Positions 1 to 26,967 are shown, counted from the stretch's first letter. The stretch: 64,000 bases of DNA from an uncultured archaeon (GCA_964534625.1 CAZHRF010000002.1:54723-118722); one strand, 5' to 3'. The notes: a model not told the origin generated them from the letters alone. Made by a program: numbers and translations.

Positions 1-90
1 TATTGCTGAATCTCCTGATAAAGAGTCAGAAGAGACTATTGCTGAATCTCCTGATAAAGAGTCAGAAGAGACTATTGCTGAATCTCCTGA
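1..90 (+). repeat. 36-bp in-frame tandem repeat (about 2.5 copies visible)
   Basis: tattgctgaatctcctgataaagagtcagaagagac occurs at 1 and 37, with a partial copy at 73. Confidence 0.95.
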
Positions 91-157
91 TGGAACTGCT
101 AAAGAAATATCCAAAAAAAAGAAAACTTCTTCTGAACACTCAAAGAAAAAAAAGTGA
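2..157 (+). CDS. 3' end of an unknown protein with acidic 12-aa repeats and a Lys-rich tail (partial, runs off window)
   Basis: Frame +2 is open from the window edge: IAESPDKESEET x2, IAESPDGTAKEISKKKKTSSEHSKKKK, TGA at 155-157. This is more protein-like than the 3..197 frame in the track. Confidence 0.65.
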   Translation: MAESPDKESEETIAESPDKESEETIAESPDGTAKEISKKKKTSSEHSKKKK

Positions 158-188
158 GATAACACAAGCAAAAAAAGTTTTGATTGTA

Positions 189-1163
189 TTAATATAGTAG
201 TATAATTGCAATAATTATCCCTATGAGTATTGTAATGGCAAATGCAATTCTTATTGCGTATCTTTTAGTGATAATCTGAAATTCTCTAGAGGAAACAGAT
301 CCACCTTTAACCAAACTACGGGAAGTCCAAAATACTATGGCACAGGATGCATAGATGGATATTACATTAAGTACCAAAAGTATCAAAGATCCTAAAGCTT
401 GAGGAAAAAGTTGATTAGCTAATAATACCCCTATGTTAGCTGCTGGTGGACACAATGATGCAGCAACAGCAACACCAACGATATTTGCACTTTCACCACG
501 CAAAATAAATATTCCTCCCGCAAAGCCACTTATAATTGCAAAAACTATTTCTGCAATACCTGGTTGTGTTCGAACACTTATCTGAAATGGTATATTCCCT
601 AGATCTAGCTTAAAAATATAACCTATAAATAAACCTATAAGAATATTAGAAAAAAGTCCAAAAAATTCTGCACGAAAAGCTTTTTTAACATGAACATTAC
701 TAGGCATCATCGTTCCTAATACCGATAGAGCGATTGGACCTAATAGTGGAGCAATGATCATACTAGCTATAATAATGATAATATTATCATACAATAGACC
801 AAAAGAAGCTAGAATGCCTGCTAGTATGGATAATATGATGAAGGTAGGCGATATTTCAGCTAGATTTTTTATATTACTAATCATTTCATCAATACTGATG
901 CCTTTTCTCATCTCTATTGTGCTTTTCTTTTCTGAAGAGAGGTTTAAACTTACGGGAAGCAGTGTGATCGATCCAAAAATCTTACCTAAACCAATCCCCT
1001 TTAATTCTTCAAGTAGTAGAGTAGTGTGATTATCTTCAATTACTGTTGTAACAATAGTCTGGTCATTGTGAATTGAGATATCCCATTCAACAAAGATCCT
1101 CTCTTTTAATTCTTCAAGAATATCTAATTTATCACTAGGAAGTGAAACTCTTACTAGTTTCAT
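189..1163 (-). CDS. DUF389/TIGR00341-family membrane protein
   Basis: Motifs IIASMIIAPLLGP and VGVAVAASLCPPA, multiple TM helices. Start moved to the ATG at 1163 (MKLVRV), which follows an AGGAG SD. Confidence 0.85.
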   Translation of the reverse strand: MKLVRVSLPSDKLDILEELKERIFVEWDISIHNDQTIVTTVIEDNHTTLLLEELKGIGLGKIFGSITLLPVSLNLSSEKKSTIEMRKGISIDEMISNIKNLAEISPTFIILSILAGILASFGLLYDNIIIIIASMIIAPLLGPIALSVLGTMMPSNVHVKKAFRAEFFGLFSNILIGLFIGYIFKLDLGNIPFQISVRTQPGIAEIVFAIISGFAGGIFILRGESANIVGVAVAASLCPPAANIGVLLANQLFPQALGSLILLVLNVISIYASCAIVFWTSRSLVKGGSVSSREFQIITKRYAIRIAFAITILIGIIIAIILLY

Positions 1164-17614: not shown

Positions 17615-18613
17615 ATGACAATTCGTATGGGAATAAATGGTTTTGGTCGCATTGGACGCGGTGTATTTAGGGCTGGTTTTGGTAATGAAGCCATTGAATT
17701 TGTTGGTATTAATGATATTACAAGTGTAGAAATCTTAGCTCATTTATTGAAGTATGATTCAACCCATGGGACATTTCCTTACCCAGTTTCTGTTAAGGGA
17801 AATAATTTGGTTGTTGATGGTAAGATTATACCTGTATTTAGTCTTAAAAATCCTGCTGATATACCTTGGGATTCCGTTGATACTGATATAGTTGTAGAAT
17901 GTACTGGATTCTTTAGAACATATGATGATGCAGCTAAACATCTCAAACCTGGGGTGAAAAACGTTATAATTTCAGCTCCTTCAAAAGGTGGGCCTGTATC
18001 GACATTTGTCATGGGGGTGAATGAATCTGAGTTTAGTTTTGAGAAGCATAAAGTTATATCTAATGCTAGTTGCACAACGAATTGTTATGCACCAGTTACA
18101 AAAGTTTTAGATGAAAAGTTTGGTATTGAACAAGGATTTATGACAACCGTCCATAGTTACACAGGAGATCAGAGAATATTAGATGCACCACACAAAGATC
18201 TTAGAAGAGCACGTTCCGCTGCAGTTTCGATCATACCTACCACTACAGGATCAGCTAAAGCAGTAGGGGCTGTTTTACCCCATTTAGACGGAAAGTTAGA
18301 TGCTATCGCAATAAGAGTACCCTCTCCTAATGTATCAATTATAGATGCGGTATATACTCTTAAAAATGAAACAACTGTAGATGAAGTGAATGAAATATTC
18401 AAAGAAGCAGCAGAAGAAGAATTAAAAGATATATTGGCTGTATCAAATGAGCCATTAGTATCAATAGATTATAACGGGGATCCCCATTCTGCAATTGTAG
18501 ATTTATTATCTACCAAAGTTATGGGTAATAAGGTAAAAATTGTAGCATGGTATGATAATGAAACGGGATATTCACATAGAATGATTGATTTGGCCCGTTA
18601 TATTTCAAAATAA
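17615..18613 (+). CDS. gap: Glyceraldehyde-3-phosphate dehydrogenase, class I (bacterial/eukaryotic type)
   Basis: GINGFGRIGR, LLKYDSTHG, SNASCTTNC, DLRRARSAA, WYDNE. Confidence 0.97.
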   Translation: MTIRMGINGFGRIGRGVFRAGFGNEAIEFVGINDITSVEILAHLLKYDSTHGTFPYPVSVKGNNLVVDGKIIPVFSLKNPADIPWDSVDTDIVVECTGFFRTYDDAAKHLKPGVKNVIISAPSKGGPVSTFVMGVNESEFSFEKHKVISNASCTTNCYAPVTKVLDEKFGIEQGFMTTVHSYTGDQRILDAPHKDLRRARSAAVSIIPTTTGSAKAVGAVLPHLDGKLDAIAIRVPSPNVSIIDAVYTLKNETTVDEVNEIFKEAAEEELKDILAVSNEPLVSIDYNGDPHSAIVDLLSTKVMGNKVKIVAWYDNETGYSHRMIDLARYISK

Positions 18614-18768
18614 GTTCAGCTTTTTCTTGACTTTTTTTCTTTTTACTATAATTATAAAGGAAGAACAAAAGAGCGATTCTAGAGATTTTGATTTTTATAT
18701 GAGTGAATTTCAAACCTTCCATTAATTTTTCAATATAAGAGAAAAATAAAGAAGAGGAAAAAAAAGTA

Positions 18769-21700
18769 TTATCTTCTTCGAGGCGGTCTGCTACGATATT
18801 CATTATACATTGTGAGAATATTTAAAACCATATTCTCATTAACAGACATAATAAGTACTAGATCGCCTGATTTTGTCCTATGACCAATAAACCCTTGTTC
18901 TCCGCCATCACGAATTCCTATCATGACTGGTGCATCTGGGAAATCATTAACAACAATTGTTCCTCTATCTTTAGGCTTGTTGAGTATTTCCGTTAAATTA
19001 GGACTGAGTTTATCTTTATCTGTATATACCTCTAGTCTCCCAGTAAATGTTCCAATCCATTTTTCATCTGCCCAACTGAATTCAGGTGCAATGATATTTG
19101 CTTTGGTTTTTACATCTTTTAACATCCCCATCATAGATGCTGTTACTTCTTTTTCTCCTGAAATTATCCATGTGTCTTCTACGGGTTTGGGTTCAATTCC
19201 TCCACCCAAAGAGAGAACTTGTTTCATTAAAACCATTGATTCATCTATTGCATCTAGGGTTGAACCAATTCTGTTCGGGATGTTTTGGAGTTCTTTTTTA
19301 ACATTGGTTTCGAGTTTAGTTACCTCACCTTGTGATGTTTTAACAAACTGTTCTTTATGAGTCATTAATGAGTTAACATAGGTCTTTTGATCTTTTTTGA
19401 CTTCCGTAACCTCTTTTACCAACGTATCTAATTGCTCTGTTTCGGTTACATGCATCTCTTTTGCATATTCATGTGCTAATTTTTCGAACGATTTAAGATC
19501 TTTTGTTACATTAGTTTTAACTGTTCCAGTAGCATCCAGTAATGTATCTCTTGTTCCTTGAATATTTGTGACTAATGAACTTGAGTTGGTGTCTGATGCT
19601 GTTACGAGGCTTGATGTTTGATGTTGTACATTTAATCCAAAGTCGTTTATTGTTTTCTCAAATATTTCGTCTAGGCTTGTCTTTGTTTCTTCAAGATTTT
19701 GTGCTTTTGTTGAGTAAGTTCCATCTAAATCTTTCTTAACTTTCTCTATAACTTGATTTAAGATAGACTGAATTTGTTCTTGATATTGAATCAAATTTTC
19801 TTTTGTACTACTCATGTAAGCTTTGTGCTCTTCTTCGAAATTATTTGGATAGCTCTTAATTAGATTATCAAGTTCCGTCTCAATTTTTTCTGTCTCTTTA
19901 TCTAAAAGTGATGATTTTTCAGGTCCAATTGATATTTCTGCCATGATTTCTTCAGAATCAGTTGAGAAAACTTCCTTTTGTTCTTTGATAAGCGTGCTTA
20001 TATCCTGTGATACTCTCTCTGTATGCTGTGAGAACTGGTTTGACGCCTTATCAAGAGTGACAGAAATGTCTTCATCTAATGCTTTTTTAGCATTGTCTAG
20101 TTCATTTTCCAAGGATTCCATTGTGCTGTCCATTGACGAAGTTAAGTCTGTTACAAGAATTGAATGTTCATCAATTTTTGTTTTAATAGTTTCTTCAATC
20201 GATGCAGATACATTTTGTGTACTGTTCTTAATAATACCCAAAATTTGTTCTTTTTCTGTTTTCAAGCTATTTATACCTGTCTCAACCTTTTCTTTTATTT
20301 CTACCTTCTTAGCTTCAACCATTTCGTTAGTCTTAGCTTTACTCTGTGTAATCTTCCCGTCTATTTCTTGAGTGGCTTTTTCAATTGCTGAATTGAGAAG
20401 TGAAACCCCTTTCTTGTTTAGAGATTTATTGGCTTTTGAAAGTTCAGTTGATACTTCTGTCATATTACCAGAAACAGATTGATTGAATGTATCTATTTGT
20501 GTTTTAATTGTCTCTAAAAGCCCTTTTACCGCTTTTTGTTCACCTTTAATTAGTTTCGTATTTTCTTTTGAAACTAGATTAATGATCTCTTTTCCATCCT
20601 TATTTAATTCAGTGAAGAATGTTTTAATGTCTTCAGACTCGGCAAGACTTCCCACAGCTTCGATTACATTATTAGTTGAAGATTCTAATTGTGAATATGA
20701 TTCTTTTACCGCTTCTTCATCACGACCAATTAACTCTTTCATTTTTGTTGTGTGTGTTTCTTGTATCTGATTGAAAGATTCAGAATATTCATCATAAGCC
20801 TTGTTTATGTGCGTTTTCATACTTTTTAATGTGTGATTAAACGATTGATCAAGTTCGGTTTCTGATTTTGTAACAACTTTTCCTAATTCTTGTATAGCTG
20901 CATCCTTTTTTTCTGTCAAATCATCTAGGTGTTTATTCATATTTTGGAACACATTAGACGTAATAGCCTCTTTATTTGCCATTAGAGTACTTAATATACT
21001 TGTCATTTTTTGATTAGTTTCTCTTTCTATTAGTTGATACTCAGAACGGAGTATTTCATATTTGTCTCCAAATAGCTCTGCGTCTTCTTTTTCCATAACC
21101 GTTTTAAGGGCGTTCTGAACTTTTTTATCAGTATAATCAAAAGAATCAAAGACTGATAGAACATCATTCAACTTTTCTAGAAAACGCTTCATTTTGTTTT
21201 CTAACTCATTTAATCGGTCCATCGTTGCTTGATAACTCAATTCAACAGTATTTGGAACATCATCTCTGACATCTCTCCCTTCTTTTAGAAATTCATCTAT
21301 GATCAAAGAGTAATTCTGAACATATTCTTCTTCTTTTTCTCGTATTTTTTGTTTGATGTTTTCACTATTAGAAGAAATATTATTAGAAATATCAGAAATA
21401 ACGGATGTCTTTAGTTCAGTTAAGTTATTTTGGAAATTATTCTTAAAGTCTTCATGAATATTGTCAAAGTTCTCTAATTCGGTTTCAACAAGAGAGGTAT
21501 ATCCTTCAACTTTTTCTGCCAGCGCTTGAATATTTTGCTTTCCCATTTCATTGAAAGATGAAGAAGCATCCAATAATACTTTAAATAGGGCTGTTTGTTT
21601 TTCTTTTATCTTTTCATCCATTGCATTAGAATAAGAGGTGCTGATTTTTTCAATGCTAGAAATTGATTGATTTTGTTTTTCGATAATATCTGATTTGGCT

Positions 21701-23238
21701 TTCCCAAGGTTGGCTTTATTTTTATCAATAGATTGTGCTAGTGTCGAAGTAAAACTCTCTTGTAAGTCTAAAACTTTTTTCTCAGTTGTTTGCAACGTTT
21801 CGCTTGAAGCTTGTTTAAACGATTCTAGTCCTGTGTTCAAGTTTTCTATTATTCCTGAATTAAGATTATCTATATCGGTAAATACATTGGTAATATACGC
21901 AGTAATGAATTCTTCAAGAGTATTATTTAATTCCATTATATTATTACTAAGTGTTGTAACAGATTTATTCAAACCCTTCTCTAATTCATTTACTCCCTTA
22001 GTTAAACCCTCTTTTAGCATATCCAACAGATTATCACTATTCGTCTTGAAATCCTCTAAATAACCACTTAGGGATACTGTGAGTTCATTTTTCATTGACA
22101 CAGATTTTGTCTTAGTATCGGTAATTATACTTCCCAGACTCTTAACAGCCATGTCCTTTGTTCTATTTACAAGTTCTACAAAATTAGTTTCGTTTTCTTT
22201 GAGTCTTTCAACTGCTATATTTTTTGATTTTTCGATACTTGATTCAATTCTTGTGGTTGTCTGTATTTCAAGATTTTTTAATTCATCATTTAATGATGAA
22301 AGGATCTCTTTAACGTTTTGTTGATATTGCTTTATTTGTTGTTTATAATTTTCAACTGTCGTATTTATTGTCTGTTGTGCTAATGTTTTCGCTTCTTTCC
22401 CAACTCTCTCTGAATCTAACTTTAATTCATTAAATGTGTCATTTGTATTTTCTTGTATTAGATCTTTCTTTTCATTAAATAAAGTATTATATTCTTCTTG
22501 AAGTGTTTGAATCTTTGTTTGTATTTCATCTATCTTTTGTTTGATATCCGACAATTCCGAATGAACTCTTTCTTTATGCTTTTCTTCGATTTCAGTATAT
22601 GTACTTTCTATTTTCGTTTTAAAATTTTCATGAAAGGCTCCTATTTTTGTAATAGTGGTATCAAAGCTTTTCGTTGTATTTTCATCCATTCTTTGAATTG
22701 ACTTGTTGAAGGTTTCTATGTTAGTTGATAGCAGAGACGAACTTTCTTCCAATAATTTGTTTTTAATCTCCGTAATTCTTTGTTTATTTTCATCGATTGT
22801 AGATGAAATATTATCCAAGTAGCTCTTAGTATGCTTTTTAACTTCTGATGCGTGTTTATCTGAGTTTGTAATAATTGCATTATTGAGATTGTTCAAATTA
22901 CTGGAAAGTGTATCTATAGTTCTCTTCCATTCATCTAAAACTCCATCACTTGTTTTTCTCAGTTCATTCTTTAAACGCAATGAAACATCTTCAGTTAGCT
23001 TTATTTGAGGAGGGAGGGGAATATAATAGGGTGTCGCTTGTTGATTCTCTGCCTTGATCTCTTTTATATATCCACGCTCTATCAAACTCTTTAACGCGCC
23101 CATAATCACATCAGAAGATTGATCATAATAAACTTGGATTTGACCAAGTGTTCGGTAACCAAATTGAATAATTGTCGAATATACTTGTATTTCTTCTTCT
23201 TTTAAACCAAGATCTTTTAGTGTTGCATCTAATTCCAT
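18769..23238 (-). CDS. Giant TrmB-like protein: N-terminal wHTH, about 1270-aa hendecad coiled coil, C-terminal TrmB effector/PLD-like domain
   Basis: N-terminus LKDLGLKEEEIQVY...LKSLIERGYIKEI...YYIPLPP is TrmB-type wHTH. C-terminus TWIISGEKEV...ANIIAP...IGIRDG resembles the TrmB C-domain. The middle shows 11-residue periodicity. Confidence 0.8.
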   Translation of the reverse strand: MELDATLKDLGLKEEEIQVYSTIIQFGYRTLGQIQVYYDQSSDVIMGALKSLIERGYIKEIKAENQQATPYYIPLPPQIKLTEDVSLRLKNELRKTSDGVLDEWKRTIDTLSSNLNNLNNAIITNSDKHASEVKKHTKSYLDNISSTIDENKQRITEIKNKLLEESSSLLSTNIETFNKSIQRMDENTTKSFDTTITKIGAFHENFKTKIESTYTEIEEKHKERVHSELSDIKQKIDEIQTKIQTLQEEYNTLFNEKKDLIQENTNDTFNELKLDSERVGKEAKTLAQQTINTTVENYKQQIKQYQQNVKEILSSLNDELKNLEIQTTTRIESSIEKSKNIAVERLKENETNFVELVNRTKDMAVKSLGSIITDTKTKSVSMKNELTVSLSGYLEDFKTNSDNLLDMLKEGLTKGVNELEKGLNKSVTTLSNNIMELNNTLEEFITAYITNVFTDIDNLNSGIIENLNTGLESFKQASSETLQTTEKKVLDLQESFTSTLAQSIDKNKANLGKAKSDIIEKQNQSISSIEKISTSYSNAMDEKIKEKQTALFKVLLDASSSFNEMGKQNIQALAEKVEGYTSLVETELENFDNIHEDFKNNFQNNLTELKTSVISDISNNISSNSENIKQKIREKEEEYVQNYSLIIDEFLKEGRDVRDDVPNTVELSYQATMDRLNELENKMKRFLEKLNDVLSVFDSFDYTDKKVQNALKTVMEKEDAELFGDKYEILRSEYQLIERETNQKMTSILSTLMANKEAITSNVFQNMNKHLDDLTEKKDAAIQELGKVVTKSETELDQSFNHTLKSMKTHINKAYDEYSESFNQIQETHTTKMKELIGRDEEAVKESYSQLESSTNNVIEAVGSLAESEDIKTFFTELNKDGKEIINLVSKENTKLIKGEQKAVKGLLETIKTQIDTFNQSVSGNMTEVSTELSKANKSLNKKGVSLLNSAIEKATQEIDGKITQSKAKTNEMVEAKKVEIKEKVETGINSLKTEKEQILGIIKNSTQNVSASIEETIKTKIDEHSILVTDLTSSMDSTMESLENELDNAKKALDEDISVTLDKASNQFSQHTERVSQDISTLIKEQKEVFSTDSEEIMAEISIGPEKSSLLDKETEKIETELDNLIKSYPNNFEEEHKAYMSSTKENLIQYQEQIQSILNQVIEKVKKDLDGTYSTKAQNLEETKTSLDEIFEKTINDFGLNVQHQTSSLVTASDTNSSSLVTNIQGTRDTLLDATGTVKTNVTKDLKSFEKLAHEYAKEMHVTETEQLDTLVKEVTEVKKDQKTYVNSLMTHKEQFVKTSQGEVTKLETNVKKELQNIPNRIGSTLDAIDESMVLMKQVLSLGGGIEPKPVEDTWIISGEKEVTASMMGMLKDVKTKANIIAPEFSWADEKWIGTFTGRLEVYTDKDKLSPNLTEILNKPKDRGTIVVNDFPDAPVMIGIRDGGEQGFIGHRTKSGDLVLIMSVNENMVLNILTMYNEYRSRPPRRR

Positions 23239-23251
23239 TTTATAACCTCTT

Positions 23252-24691
23252 CTACTCTAATTCTTCAATTTTTTCAGTTAATTTGTCAATCTTATTAGTA
23301 ATATCATTCTTTGATTTTACAATATTCTTAGCATTTTCTTGTACGTCATTCGCTTCTTTTTCAAGTTCAGAAAGACCTGTAGACTGTGTTGAACCAATAG
23401 TATCTTTTGCTTGTCCAATGTCATTTTTAATCTGCTTGACTGAAAGTTCTTTAGTTTTTGTTATGTCTTTGTTAATCGATTGTTGTGTATTATTTATTTC
23501 TTCTAGAAGTCTTTCATCGATTTGGGTTAAATTGTTATCAATTGTAGTAGTCTTGTCTTCACTCTGTTGTTTAAATTGTTCTTTATTTTGATCAATTGAG
23601 GTAAGTATATTTTTTACTTCTTTCTGAACCCGTTTTTGTTCTTCATTTATTGTACTTTTAACTTCATCCTTCATTTTTTCTGATTGTTCTTCGAAACTCT
23701 TTAAAGTTGTATTAAAATCTGTTTCTAACCCACTTTCAATCTCTTTAAGTTCTATTTCATTTGCTGTTAAAGCATCTTGAGTTATCTCATCAAAAAGATT
23801 GAACATAGAGTTTTTTTCTTCATCAAAATTATTAAGAATGACAGAATTTATATCCAGCATACCTGTTTCGTATTCAGCTAAGGTTTCTTGTATCTTAGAT
23901 ATTTCATTGATGAGATATTTATCCATTGTTGTATTAATATCTGATAACTCACTTTGGATTCTTTGTACAGCATTAGAAACCATTAGTTGTAACTCATCCT
24001 TTATTTTACCAAAACTATCAAAAACGGCTTCCATGTTATTTGTGAGTTTGTCACGATATTCAGAACGAAGGTGATCAATAGACTTGTCGATTAAATCTTC
24101 ATTAACTTGCATACTTTTGTCAAGCTGATCACGTAATTTTTGGGTATTAGTTTGCATAGTTTCAACATTAGTTTCTCGTCTGTCTTTTATAGAACCTATA
24201 GTACCATCAATCGTTTTCCTTAATGCATTGACTTGTTTATTTGCAAATAATTCAAACTTTTGGCTATGTGTCCCAAGTGTCTTCACTATCCTTTCATCAA
24301 AGGATTTAGATACATTCGAGAAGTCCTTACTACCTGTATTCAATAAATCAATATATTCGTGTTGCAATTCTTGGAGTTTATCCTTAATTGATTTGATCTC
24401 TTTGTTTATGGTACCCTTATTCTTCTCCGACCACGAATTGGTTTGTTCAATCGCTGTCTCTGAAATTTTATTGATTTGGGTTTTGGCTTTATTTTCTACT
24501 TCTGTTTGAATAGTCGTGACTTTATTTTCCATCTCAATAAATTTTGATTGAATAAGGTTTGACATTTCTTTATAATGCAGTTCTAAGGACTGCAAATTTC
24601 CTAAAGATTCTTTAAAAATGGTTAATTCGCTTCCTATCTCTTCAAGTTTCTTTTTTGCTTTTTCTATATCCTTGGCAATTTTTTCTGACAT
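23252..24691 (-). CDS. All-helical hendecad coiled-coil protein (479 aa)
   Basis: No prolines and continuous 11-residue amphipathic repeats. GGTGA SD precedes the start. Ends 13 bp before the giant gene. Confidence 0.85.
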   Translation of the reverse strand: MSEKIAKDIEKAKKKLEEIGSELTIFKESLGNLQSLELHYKEMSNLIQSKFIEMENKVTTIQTEVENKAKTQINKISETAIEQTNSWSEKNKGTINKEIKSIKDKLQELQHEYIDLLNTGSKDFSNVSKSFDERIVKTLGTHSQKFELFANKQVNALRKTIDGTIGSIKDRRETNVETMQTNTQKLRDQLDKSMQVNEDLIDKSIDHLRSEYRDKLTNNMEAVFDSFGKIKDELQLMVSNAVQRIQSELSDINTTMDKYLINEISKIQETLAEYETGMLDINSVILNNFDEEKNSMFNLFDEITQDALTANEIELKEIESGLETDFNTTLKSFEEQSEKMKDEVKSTINEEQKRVQKEVKNILTSIDQNKEQFKQQSEDKTTTIDNNLTQIDERLLEEINNTQQSINKDITKTKELSVKQIKNDIGQAKDTIGSTQSTGLSELEKEANDVQENAKNIVKSKNDITNKIDKLTEKIEELE

Positions 24692-24702: not shown

Positions 24703-26472
24703 TTAAAAATCTAATTCTTTCTCTAAATCCAAATCTTCGATTGAAACTTTTTCAACTTTATCTGGTTCTATCTCAGGTAATGAATCTATTGCTATTTGTT
24801 CTTTTTGATATTTGGTTGACTGGAAGTATTCATGGTGAACTGGATGTTCTTTAAACACTTTCATTGTCTTTTGTCTAATTTTTTCGAATTGATTGCTATC
24901 ACCAATCGCTTTATAACAATCGATACAAGATTTATAATATGCTCGGATGGCATATCCCGATTTTTTAACGTTTAAAGAGGAGGCTAGTTTTTCAAATTGA
25001 TCAGCTGCTCTCCTATATGATCTTTCTGCTTTTGTTTCTTCATCCACATCAGCATAATATTTTGCCGATTTTACATATAATTTAGCAGCAAATTTATAGT
25101 TTTTTTCTTCAAAGTCTCTAGCTATTTCCTCACATGTATTTCCTGCTTGATCATAATCATTTACACTTTCTAATTTCTCAGCATTCAGTAAGGTAAGTTT
25201 GTATGCTTTATAGAACATTTCATTAGAAATGCATAAAGAAATAATATGATGTAGTTTCTTAGCTACAGCAAAATAGCATAGTGGGTCTTTAACTTTCTTT
25301 ATATAATCGCTTAATAATTCTATCTCAGTATTACTTGGAGCAATCTTGTTTTCTAAGTTTGCTATTATCTTATTGATACTGTGAATAAGTGTGGGAAGTG
25401 GAATGTAAAGTTTTGATCGTAGGTTAATTGAATTTAATAAGGCGTTGTTTTGGAGTCTAGCAAAAGAATCACCAATCCATAAGATGTCTTTTTCCTTAAG
25501 TTCGTTTACTCCCTCTTTAGAAGTGTTTTTGATTAAACTTTTTAAGGGAAATAAGTTTTCATTATAAGTTGCTATCTCCTCCAAAACTTCCTCTTCTTTA
25601 TCTGTCATATCCATTAATTTAGATAAATTACGTTCAACAAAGTCATTAATAGTAAGTCCTTTATCAACAAATCCTATGCCTAACATTAAATCAAAATGGG
25701 TCTTTGTACTATTAGTGATTATATCTAAAAGACCTTTATTTACTAACATGGGCGCTTTTCTTCTTAAAAATATCTCTGCTTCAGAGGATGACAATGCTTC
25801 AATTTTTAAGATCTCAGAATTATTTGTTAAATAAGAATTGTAATCAAATTCGGGTAAATATTGTTCTGAAAATGCACTCGTCACTAGTATATTAAGTTCT
25901 TTTTTACTAATTTCATGTATAATTTGTGCAAATATAGGATAAAATTGATTCAAATTTAGAAGCTTAAAAGTCTCAAGATTGTCTATCGTAAAATAGAGTT
26001 TAGTTTTTGTTTCCTCAAGTTTTTCGTTGATTTTTTCTAGTTTTTTCATGAATTCTGATGTATAAAAATCTGCAAAACTTATTGAATCCGGTAATTTTGG
26101 ATTGTCAAGGAGGCTAGGTAAATCATCACCTGGCTTTTTTTTGCGGAGTTTTTCAAAGAAACCTCTCCATTCTGGAGCAAGCTCATCAGCCTTATTTAAC
26201 CACAACTTAAAAAAATCCGCCATTTTTTGTTTTTCAGGAAGTAATTCAAAGTAAAACCTCTCTTCTTTCCTTCCAATGATGGATGAATTAAATTTATGCA
26301 ATAAGGAAGATTTACCTGTTCCAGCATCTCCAAGGACTAATAAACATCTTTTAGGCGTTTCTTTTAGCTTAAAAGCATTCTTAAATTTTTCAAAACGGTT
26401 AACTATATCAATAAAACCAATAAACTCTTCTGGTGTTGCTGCATATAGAAATTGATTTTGTAACTGTTCCAT
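24703..26472 (-). CDS. STAND-like P-loop NTPase with C-terminal TPR/alpha-SNAP-like repeats
   Basis: Walker A GDAGTGKS, Walker B LYFTIDNLE, helical/wHTH middle, C-terminal Ala/Tyr-rich helical repeats (AAKLYVKSAKYY, AERSYRRAADQFEKLA). Confidence 0.75.
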   Translation of the reverse strand: MEQLQNQFLYAATPEEFIGFIDIVNRFEKFKNAFKLKETPKRCLLVLGDAGTGKSSLLHKFNSSIIGRKEERFYFELLPEKQKMADFFKLWLNKADELAPEWRGFFEKLRKKKPGDDLPSLLDNPKLPDSISFADFYTSEFMKKLEKINEKLEETKTKLYFTIDNLETFKLLNLNQFYPIFAQIIHEISKKELNILVTSAFSEQYLPEFDYNSYLTNNSEILKIEALSSSEAEIFLRRKAPMLVNKGLLDIITNSTKTHFDLMLGIGFVDKGLTINDFVERNLSKLMDMTDKEEEVLEEIATYNENLFPLKSLIKNTSKEGVNELKEKDILWIGDSFARLQNNALLNSINLRSKLYIPLPTLIHSINKIIANLENKIAPSNTEIELLSDYIKKVKDPLCYFAVAKKLHHIISLCISNEMFYKAYKLTLLNAEKLESVNDYDQAGNTCEEIARDFEEKNYKFAAKLYVKSAKYYADVDEETKAERSYRRAADQFEKLASSLNVKKSGYAIRAYYKSCIDCYKAIGDSNQFEKIRQKTMKVFKEHPVHHEYFQSTKYQKEQIAIDSLPEIEPDKVEKVSIEDLDLEKELDF

Positions 26473-26685
26473 TGGTATCCCTACTTTCTTCTCTTCTTTT
26501 TATTTCATTACACTAGTTAATAAAATATGCGAATGTATCGCATGAAATAACTTAGACTCATGAGTTATTAATCTATTTGCCTATTTTATTGATTCTTCCT
26601 GAATTATGGTTGAAATTCTACTGAAAGAATAATTATTAACATATAATAATAATGTTTTATCATTGAAAAATATTATCCTTTTAGT

Positions 26686-26795
26686 TAGTACTTCCGAAAT
26701 AGTGTTCTACTGCTATTCTTTCAGTAACCAAATAAAGCAAAGATTCGTTTTAAATCGATAAAGTCTTTAATCTTTATTTTAATTCGGAAGTACTA
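26686..26795. mobile_element. MITE-like element, copy 1 (perfect 13-bp TIR)
   Basis: tagtacttccgaa (26686-26698) and ttcggaagtacta (26783-26795). Confidence 0.65.
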
Positions 26796-26967
26796 TTTAG
26801 TATAATAACTGGACAAAAAAAGGAATTTTATCTTTAAATAATATCTAAAATTCTTCAATAACTGTTTAATAATTTTGAACGCTTATTCATATACAAAGAT
26901 AAAAATAATCAGTTGCTTTACATGACATAGGTTAAGCAGTCACTAATTTAAAGCCACGGTGTAAATA

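Follow-up and report, generated by a model that had tools for sequence, protein, structure and literature searches.

Proteins of the TrmB family dimerise through a coiled-coil helix that follows the winged helix-turn-helix (wHTH) domain, and one of them, TrmBL2, which lacks the second, barrel-like subdomain of the TrmB sugar site, is a general chromosomal protein in Thermococcales (PMC4158304). The arms of SMC, Rad50 and MukB are antiparallel coiled coils formed within one chain, which doubles back at a hinge (Melby et al. 1998, PMC2141774). In this work, we analysed a gene whose product recalls both: a 1489-amino-acid (aa) open reading frame (ORF) of an uncultured Heimdall-group Asgard archaeon, located in a stretch of 64,000 nucleotides (GCA_964534625.1 CAZHRF010000002.1:54723-118722, hereafter the window). 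We propose that the protein probably consists of a TrmBL2-type head on a fold-back rod of fixed length built from hendecad (11/3) repeats, that it belongs to a conserved NTPase operon, and that it acts as a DNA-anchored spacer or bridge.

The ORF was recovered as a first-pass annotation, made from the sequence alone, had placed it (18769-23238, minus strand, 1489 aa). That annotation described a TrmB regulator split by a long hendecad helix, with a TrmB-type wHTH at the N-terminus and a PLD-like domain of TrmB type at the C-terminus, and both end domains were confirmed. The N-terminus matched PF01978 (TrmB) over aa 7-77 above the Pfam cut-off (27.4 vs 25.6 bits), and a profile of aa 1-200 derived from 25 orthologues matched TrmB (3qph_A, E 2.8e-11) and TrmBL2 (E 3.7e-4) in the PDB; the alignment covered TrmB residues 6-105, i.e. 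the wHTH and the start of the N-terminal arm of the rod (N-arm), whose helix runs from aa ~89. Seven wHTH residues were invariant among orthologues (L7, G11, Y20, T30, L52, P77 and I79).

The C-terminal ~145 aa gave no significant sequence-level match in Pfam, NCBIfam or PDB, and in the models their relation to TrmB is apparent at fold level only. Using an AlphaFold2 model of aa 1290-1489, whose core reached a predicted local distance difference test (pLDDT) value of ~90, Foldseek returned TrmBL2 chains as best matches (E 2e-8), with TrmB also among the best structural matches; the last 55 residues of the C-terminal arm (C-arm), with the PLD-like domain that follows, overlaid the linker helix and domain of TrmBL2 (5bpd_C, model range 7..197). 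The alignment spanned residues 110-239 of 2f5t only: the protein stops after the PLD-like domain, and the barrel-like subdomain that completes the sugar site of TrmB is not present. It is thus a split TrmB-family protein, with ~1250 residues between its two parts, but its nearest relative is TrmBL2 and not the sugar-sensing TrmB. The HxK(x)4D catalytic motif was not found in the PLD-like domain. Among 16-25 orthologues its invariant positions were P, K, W, R-D and E, with no invariant His, and because no His is conserved the domain is not considered an HKD enzyme. Pfam and NCBIfam scans gave no P-loop family match in the rod protein.

The region between these domains had been parsed into 11-mers, to be verified by Fourier analysis against a plain heptad. 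The hydrophobicity of aa 96-1355 yielded a single peak at 3.667 residues (power 746), against 53±12 (maximum 96) for shuffled sequences, and period 3.5 scored 4.3; the plain-heptad reading therefore falls. As the 3.67 peak was present in all 23 homologues found, the periodicity lies far beyond chance. The phase was constant from aa 89 to ~650, i.e. ~50 hendecads in one register, with shifts near aa 660-730, 837-858 and 1079 and a signal that fades near aa 1300-1320. Hydrophobic residues occupied positions a (73% ILVMF), e (63%) and h/i (37-39%) of the 11-mer, lysines lay beside this stripe (positions 1, 3 and 8) and acidic residues opposite (position 9: 0% K/R, 37% D/E). The rod contained no Cys and three prolines in 1232 residues (aa 662, 1106 and 1131), P662 being conserved and the sole proline of the N-arm. 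BLAST comparisons of N-arm with C-arm, and of the rod with the 479-aa helical protein encoded upstream, revealed no specific similarity, and neither an arm nor the 479-aa protein is therefore a recent duplicate.

Such amphipathic 11-mers are also those of apolipoproteins and perilipins, and the protein could bind a membrane or lipid droplet surface, a hairpin then being its lipid-free storage form. PF01442 (Apolipoprotein) indeed scored 102.8 bits against a cut-off of 90, in 8 stretches, the profile matched ApoA-IV and ApoA-I (E 2e-9 to 1e-4), and the charge pattern is class-A-like, with Lys flanking the stripe and acidic residues opposite. Nevertheless, the stripe is narrow (~3/11 positions) and coiled-coil-like, the few prolines do not punctuate 22-mers, the protein lacks a signal peptide or membrane segment, and the evolutionary matching of the arms described below indicates that the helices pair with each other. 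The shared 11-residue periodicity can account for the similarity, and we regard lipid binding as quite improbable.

The arrangement of the rod emerged from comparison of orthologues, which formed a long class (1440-1489 aa) and a short class (1256-1264 aa). When two proteins of the same genus, one from each class (P0002 and P0007), were aligned, the short one proved to lack exactly 106 residues of the N-arm and as many (82+24) of the C-arm, and the gaps of the short class lay at 142-229 (N-arm) and 149-238 (C-arm) residues from the apex. Mirroring about aa 710 predicts aa 861-966 as the counterpart of aa 454-559; the dispensable zone of the C-arm was found at ~aa 855-958. The N-arm zone coincided with the lowest conservation of that arm. 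The long form is that of sister genera and families, which makes the short form the derived one. In a second, independent lineage (P0051, 1303 aa), the losses amount to 78 residues, at a distance of 110-224 from the apex, and 89 residues, at 121-263. More generally, arm lengths co-varied across orthologues, being 561/589 in most and 572/591, 455/484, 483/499 or 539/574 in others. Indels had been expected in multiples of 11; within the rod they were mostly of 4, 7, 11 or 22 residues, and all but one of the compared orthologues had a 6-residue indel at the apex (aa 702-707), a length not compatible with hendecads.

Conservation told the same story. When the smoothed conservation of the N-arm was compared with that of the mirrored C-arm, the correlation reached r=0.77 with a sharp optimum at centre aa 710, vs 0.04±0.22 for other centres (next best 0.43) and 0.36 for the parallel register. 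Only long-class sequences entered this test, which makes it independent of the matched deletions. The mirror correlation of local hendecad power was uninformative, its best centres being scattered over 676-772.

The first-pass annotation had also noticed an irregular segment near the midpoint and had suggested structure prediction as a check for antiparallel pairing. AlphaFold2 applied to the midpoint fragment (aa 560-850, 25 orthologues) yielded a confident hairpin (pLDDT 88.4), composed of a helix (561-698), a loop (699-704), a short helix (705-714), a break (715-716) and a second helix (717-849); the irregular segment begins with FDSFDYTDKK, i.e. aa 697-706, at the modelled loop. Taken together, an SMC-style fold-back of the rod is well supported, by four lines of sequence comparison and one structure model. 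A centre near aa 710 implies that residue i pairs with ~1420-i, and this pairing in turn brings the end of the wHTH to the start of the PLD-like domain, rebuilding a TrmBL2-like head. Of the two geometries put forward earlier, the folded one (~90-95 nm, with head and tail together) is thus retained and the fully extended 190-nm rod is disfavoured; at ~0.15 nm per residue, the folded rod would measure about 90 nm, and ~75 nm in the short class. A complex prediction of aa 1-200 with aa 1206-1489 (25-row alignments) scored 0.19 (mark 0.32) and counts neither way. The midpoint break stood at 0.49-0.50 of the rod in close subfamilies, but several distant subfamilies (~900-1000 aa) lack it, and for this reason we do not claim fold-back superfamily-wide.

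These data also bear on a parallel arrangement, in which a homodimeric or higher extended coiled coil of ~185 nm would carry the wHTHs at one end and the PLD-like domains at the other. The post-wHTH helix of TrmB makes a dimer coiled coil (PMC4158304), and the hendecad register is unbroken for 560 residues, as such a rod would suggest. It would, however, make the second, mirror-placed deletion needless, yet matched pairs occur in two lineages; the conservation correlates in the mirrored sense (0.77) and not in the parallel one (0.36), and the midpoint break is conserved. We give this arrangement very little credence.

The large gene is the last of three co-oriented genes, in the order NTPase, 479-aa helix protein and rod, so that the picture differs from that of the first-pass annotation, which had treated the gene alone. 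The 479-aa protein had an 11/3 power of 435 with constant phase over aa 23-479, contained no Pro and no midpoint break, and found no named family in the ESM Atlas (best score 0.88); its gene lay directly upstream of the large gene in every locus reaching far enough. The NTPase possesses a Walker A motif (GDAGTGKSS), and its nearest neighbours by ESM features were AAA_16+TPR proteins (0.91-0.94); SNAP (PF14938) matched aa 406-543 at E 0.0061 and 16.5 bits, below the cut-off of 25. Spacers of 11 and 13 nt separate the genes of the operon, and both contain a Shine-Dalgarno-like motif (AGAGG in the 13-nt gap before the large gene). The trio was found with spacers of 0-14 nt or overlaps in all examined loci from three families of the order, and also in Freyarchaeota (572/770/1812 aa), where homology of the NTPase reached E 2e-28 and the middle protein likewise lacked proline and kept its hendecads in constant phase. 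The operon is translationally coupled and vertically inherited.

Upstream of the operon, the 495-bp divergent intergenic region (26473-26967) contains a TATA-like, A/T-rich stretch that precedes the start of the NTPase gene by ~50 nt. At the Freyarchaeota locus (L025:1-1708), two co-oriented genes for Arf/Ras/Roc-like small GTPases, one with a weak longin-like match, directly precede the trio; Heimdall loci are devoid of such upstream GTPases.

The full-length protein was matched in 30/30 genomes of its own family, and three sister families of the order contained ORFs of 1464-1489 aa with just 20-24% identity. Its flanks are conserved housekeeping genes (GAPDH, an aminotransferase and M24 peptidases). 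A profile of the C-terminal domain matched 231/301 of the phylum genomes sampled (77/90 of the high-quality ones; 61/70 genera), in ORFs of lineage-typical lengths from ~460 to 2090 aa, as well as 220 clusters in a library of 1.84 billion proteins. All organism-named cluster members were Asgard (Freyarchaeota, Helarchaeota, Thorarchaeota and Promethearchaeota), and nearly all of the longer members combined a TrmB-like N-terminus with a hendecad middle. A partial homologue (P0024, 987 aa, E 1.7e-115) bears the label 'bacterium', the other named homologues being Asgard; this is probably a matter of binning or labelling. Two more distant paralogues, in Helarchaeota and Promethearchaeota, had different neighbours.

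The genome under study carries one copy of the gene and one 753-aa paralogue on another contig (C83, L024:3830-6091, minus). The paralogue comprises a TrmB wHTH (PF01978, 32 bits), a hendecad helix of ~520 residues and, at its C-terminus, the PLD-like domain of the rod protein (E 7.8e-13); its gene stands beside a DegV-family gene and a CitMHS transporter, outside any NTPase operon. We found no expression data (RNA sequencing runs) for this genome; the runs located were four DNA runs from a single microbial-mat study, possibly its source, and one further run with a small share.

This distribution is relevant to a role in anti-virus defence or another accessory system, in which the STAND NTPase would be the sensor and the Zorya-like helical tail the conductor of the signal. 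STAND NTPases are common in defence, the NTPase weakly matched PDC-S39, and PADLOC reported ZorA3 on the large protein (74 bits, E 1.7e-21), with a weak NCBIfam ZorA match in addition. The ZorA matches were nevertheless confined to the helical tail, with no MotA-like membrane part, and no nuclease or other effector was present within the operon; overall, PADLOC recognised no known defence system, giving a tail-type ZorA likeness and weak matches only. Defence genes are patchy and island-borne, unlike a gene present throughout its family in a constant housekeeping neighbourhood, and this universal presence and these conserved flanks speak against a defence island. A defence function is hence very unlikely.

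How the preferred reading, a TrmBL2-type head on a fold-back rod, might operate can be outlined as follows. The TrmBL2 plan, i.e. a winged helix and a non-catalytic PLD-like domain, would have been retained, its short linker helix being expanded into two length-matched arms of ~610-630 residues each. The arms would reverse at the apex (aa 699-716) and pair in antiparallel fashion, so that the wHTH (aa 1-88) and the PLD-like domain (aa 1345-1489) form a single head at one end of the rod. Comparative and modelling evidence supports this part of the reading, a hairpin with a single head on a stiff ~90-nm rod. The head may be what fastens the rod to DNA or chromatin, in the manner of TrmBL2; the rod protein is probably dimeric, which would give a four-helix, chemoreceptor-like shaft; the rod would serve as a spacer or bridge of fixed length; and the NTPase might govern how the rod assembles with the second rod protein. 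A core structural role, rather than a defence or regulatory one, is suggested by the conserved length, the single copy and the housekeeping synteny.

Several findings count against parts of this proposal. When the mirror test was applied to 15 short-class sequences, the centre fell at 588-591 as expected, but r was 0.55-0.60 vs 0.49-0.58 elsewhere. Furthermore, mirror symmetry of this kind would be expected equally of a hairpin within one chain and of an antiparallel dimer between two chains. As for the head, the equivalents of TrmB Tyr50/Asp51 (aa 46/47) are M/G here, and S/N/Q/K/R and S/G/A among the 25 orthologues, and the wHTH is neutral to acidic (8 K+R vs 13 D+E). Regarding the operon, the Pfam matches of the NTPase are sub-threshold (AAA_16 30.0 vs 32.6, ATPase_2 28.7 vs 33.2; NACHT and nSTAND1 also below), and in Heimdallarchaeia the middle protein measures 479-487 aa beside both 1257-aa and 1475-aa rods, i.e. 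it does not track arm length. In one genus (g4, e.g. L016, L019 and L021), long (1474-1475 aa) and short (1256-1273 aa) rods occur with a middle protein of 485-487 aa, a rod dimorphism of ~16 nm with the partner protein unchanged.

The intermolecular dimer, without fold-back, would consist of two extended chains laid head-to-tail in a ~185-nm rod, each end bearing one wHTH and one PLD-like domain from different chains, and would form a two-ended DNA bridge. Mirror-matched deletions, co-varying arms and mirrored conservation are predicted equally well by this arrangement, and dimerisation through the post-wHTH helix is a property of the TrmB family (PMC4158304). The centre of the rod, however, is irregular, with an invariant Pro (the P662 region) and a tolerated, non-periodic 6-residue apex indel, and in the AlphaFold2 model a loop is followed there by a short helix and a break, within a confident hairpin (pLDDT 88), while helix breakers would be needless where a straight centre pairs with itself. 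The apex loop, the conserved proline and the monomer model thus favour the hairpin, and we consider the intermolecular dimer unlikely.

With respect to the head, because the Tyr50/Asp51 equivalents are variable and the domain is not basic, DNA binding is something we infer by analogy with TrmBL2; the head could be a protein-binding module instead. The same residues weigh on the possibility that the protein is a ligand-responsive TrmB-like transcription factor whose long helix is simply a spacer between sensor and DNA-binding domain. Both end domains do belong to the TrmB family, but the specificity residues Tyr50/Asp51 are not conserved, the barrel subdomain completing the TrmB sugar site is missing, and an unconstrained spacer would not hold its length to a few residues at 20-24% identity, which makes this possibility extremely improbable.

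The coordinates of the features of the preferred reading are gathered in the table. A 94-aa ORF (18519..18803, minus) sharing 35 bases with the 3' end of the large gene was set aside as probably spurious, given its odd Phe/Tyr/Lys-rich composition and a weak DUF7197 match (E 0.007).

Table. Features of the rod-protein gene and its operon, in positions of the window
Feature	Coordinates	Strand	Remarks
Large rod-protein ORF	18769..23238	minus	1489 aa; Heimdall-group Asgard archaeon
Head part 1, TrmB-type winged helix-turn-helix	22975..23238	minus	aa 1-88
N-arm, continuous hendecad helix, predicted outward strand of hairpin	21145..22974	minus	aa 89-698
N-arm dispensable zone, missing in short (1256-1264 aa) orthologues	21562..21879	minus	~aa 454-559
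Apex turn (loop, short helix, break)	21091..21144	minus	aa 699-716
C-arm, predicted returning hendecad helix	19207..21090	minus	aa 717-1344; phase shifts near aa 837-858, 1079
C-arm dispensable zone, mirror partner, missing in short orthologues	20365..20676	minus	~aa 855-958
Head part 2, PLD-like alpha/beta domain, TrmB/TrmBL2 type	18769..19206	minus	aa 1345-1489 + stop codon
Upstream partner, 479-aa proline-free single-helix hendecad protein with heptad N-terminal cap	23252..24691	minus	
First operon gene, 589-aa P-loop NTPase, putative STAND/AAA_16 type	24703..26472	minus	putative TPR/SNAP-like helical C-terminal part, acidic tail

Among known prokaryotes, the Asgard archaea are the nearest relatives of eukaryotes and, to our knowledge, almost nothing is known of how their DNA is organised in space. 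Here, a core gene joins a head of chromatin-protein type to a rod whose length stays constant within a few residues at 20-24% identity, and when that length changes, both arms change alike, which is the signature of a molecular spacer. The TrmB-family head and the SMC-like fold-back arm are known kinds; the operon is uncharacterised in the literature searched, as queries on archaeal hendecads and on Asgard coiled-coil, TrmB, SMC-like and apolipoprotein-like proteins returned no description of the family or the operon. The natural 106+106-residue deletion offers a ready-made length variant. A bolder extension, which we consider unlikely, is that the trio builds a fixed-length, NTPase-controlled tether that keeps chromatin ~90 nm away from some other part of the cell, e.g. 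the membrane or the Asgard cytoskeleton, or bridges it to that part. If so, it would stand, in prokaryotes, as a functional forerunner or analogue of the tethers that link chromatin to the envelope in eukaryotes and of lamina-like scaffolds, with a rod length tuned per lineage from 75 to >110 nm.

Comparisons with known systems begin with the helical repeat. The tail of ZorA has a similarly long helical repeat and composition, which suggests that ZorA tails use a similar hendecad-type repeat; the rod gene, however, has neither a MotA/ExbB-like domain nor ZorB/C/D partners, and it is core and syntenic where ZorA is island-borne. The 479-aa protein scored 33 bits against PADLOC ZorA3. Apolipoproteins A-I, A-IV and E (PF01442) are built from the same tandem amphipathic 11-residue helical repeats with class-A-like charges, but the rod protein differs by the lack of proline punctuation and of a secretion signal, by its narrow stripe and by its length-matched arms, and the likeness probably derives from periodicity and not from common descent. 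The cytoplasmic domain of chemoreceptors (2ch7, 1qu7) has a heptad-based repeat, whereas the rod protein is hendecad and bears no sequence relation to it; the membrane or HAMP part, the methylation and the kinase-control tip of chemoreceptors are missing.

With SMC proteins, the rod protein shares an antiparallel arm folded in the middle, although here intra- and intermolecular pairing both fit the mirror data. SMC heads are ABC ATPases, whereas the head described here would associate a wHTH with a PLD-like domain, the rod protein having no Walker motifs and the NTPase being separate. Instead of a globular hinge or zinc hook, the Cys-free rod has a turn of ~18 residues; its repeat is a pure hendecad and its arm has nearly double the length of that of SMC. 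Such a protein would represent a new solution to the SMC-type architecture, with a split head on a fold-back arm and the nucleotide switch in a separate protein. Finally, TrmBL2 (TK0471 / PF0496; 5bqt, 5bpd, 5bpi, 5box) and TrmB (3qph, 2f5t) have the same order of wHTH, helix and PLD-like domain, and TrmBL2, like the rod protein, lacks the sugar-binding barrel. The DNA-contacting Tyr/Asp of TrmB are not conserved in the rod protein, and the helix of ~30 residues in TrmBL2 and TrmB compares with a fold-back rod of ~1250 residues here; where TrmBL2 belongs to Thermococcales, the rod gene belongs to an Asgard lineage and lies in an operon that also encodes an NTPase and a second rod protein.

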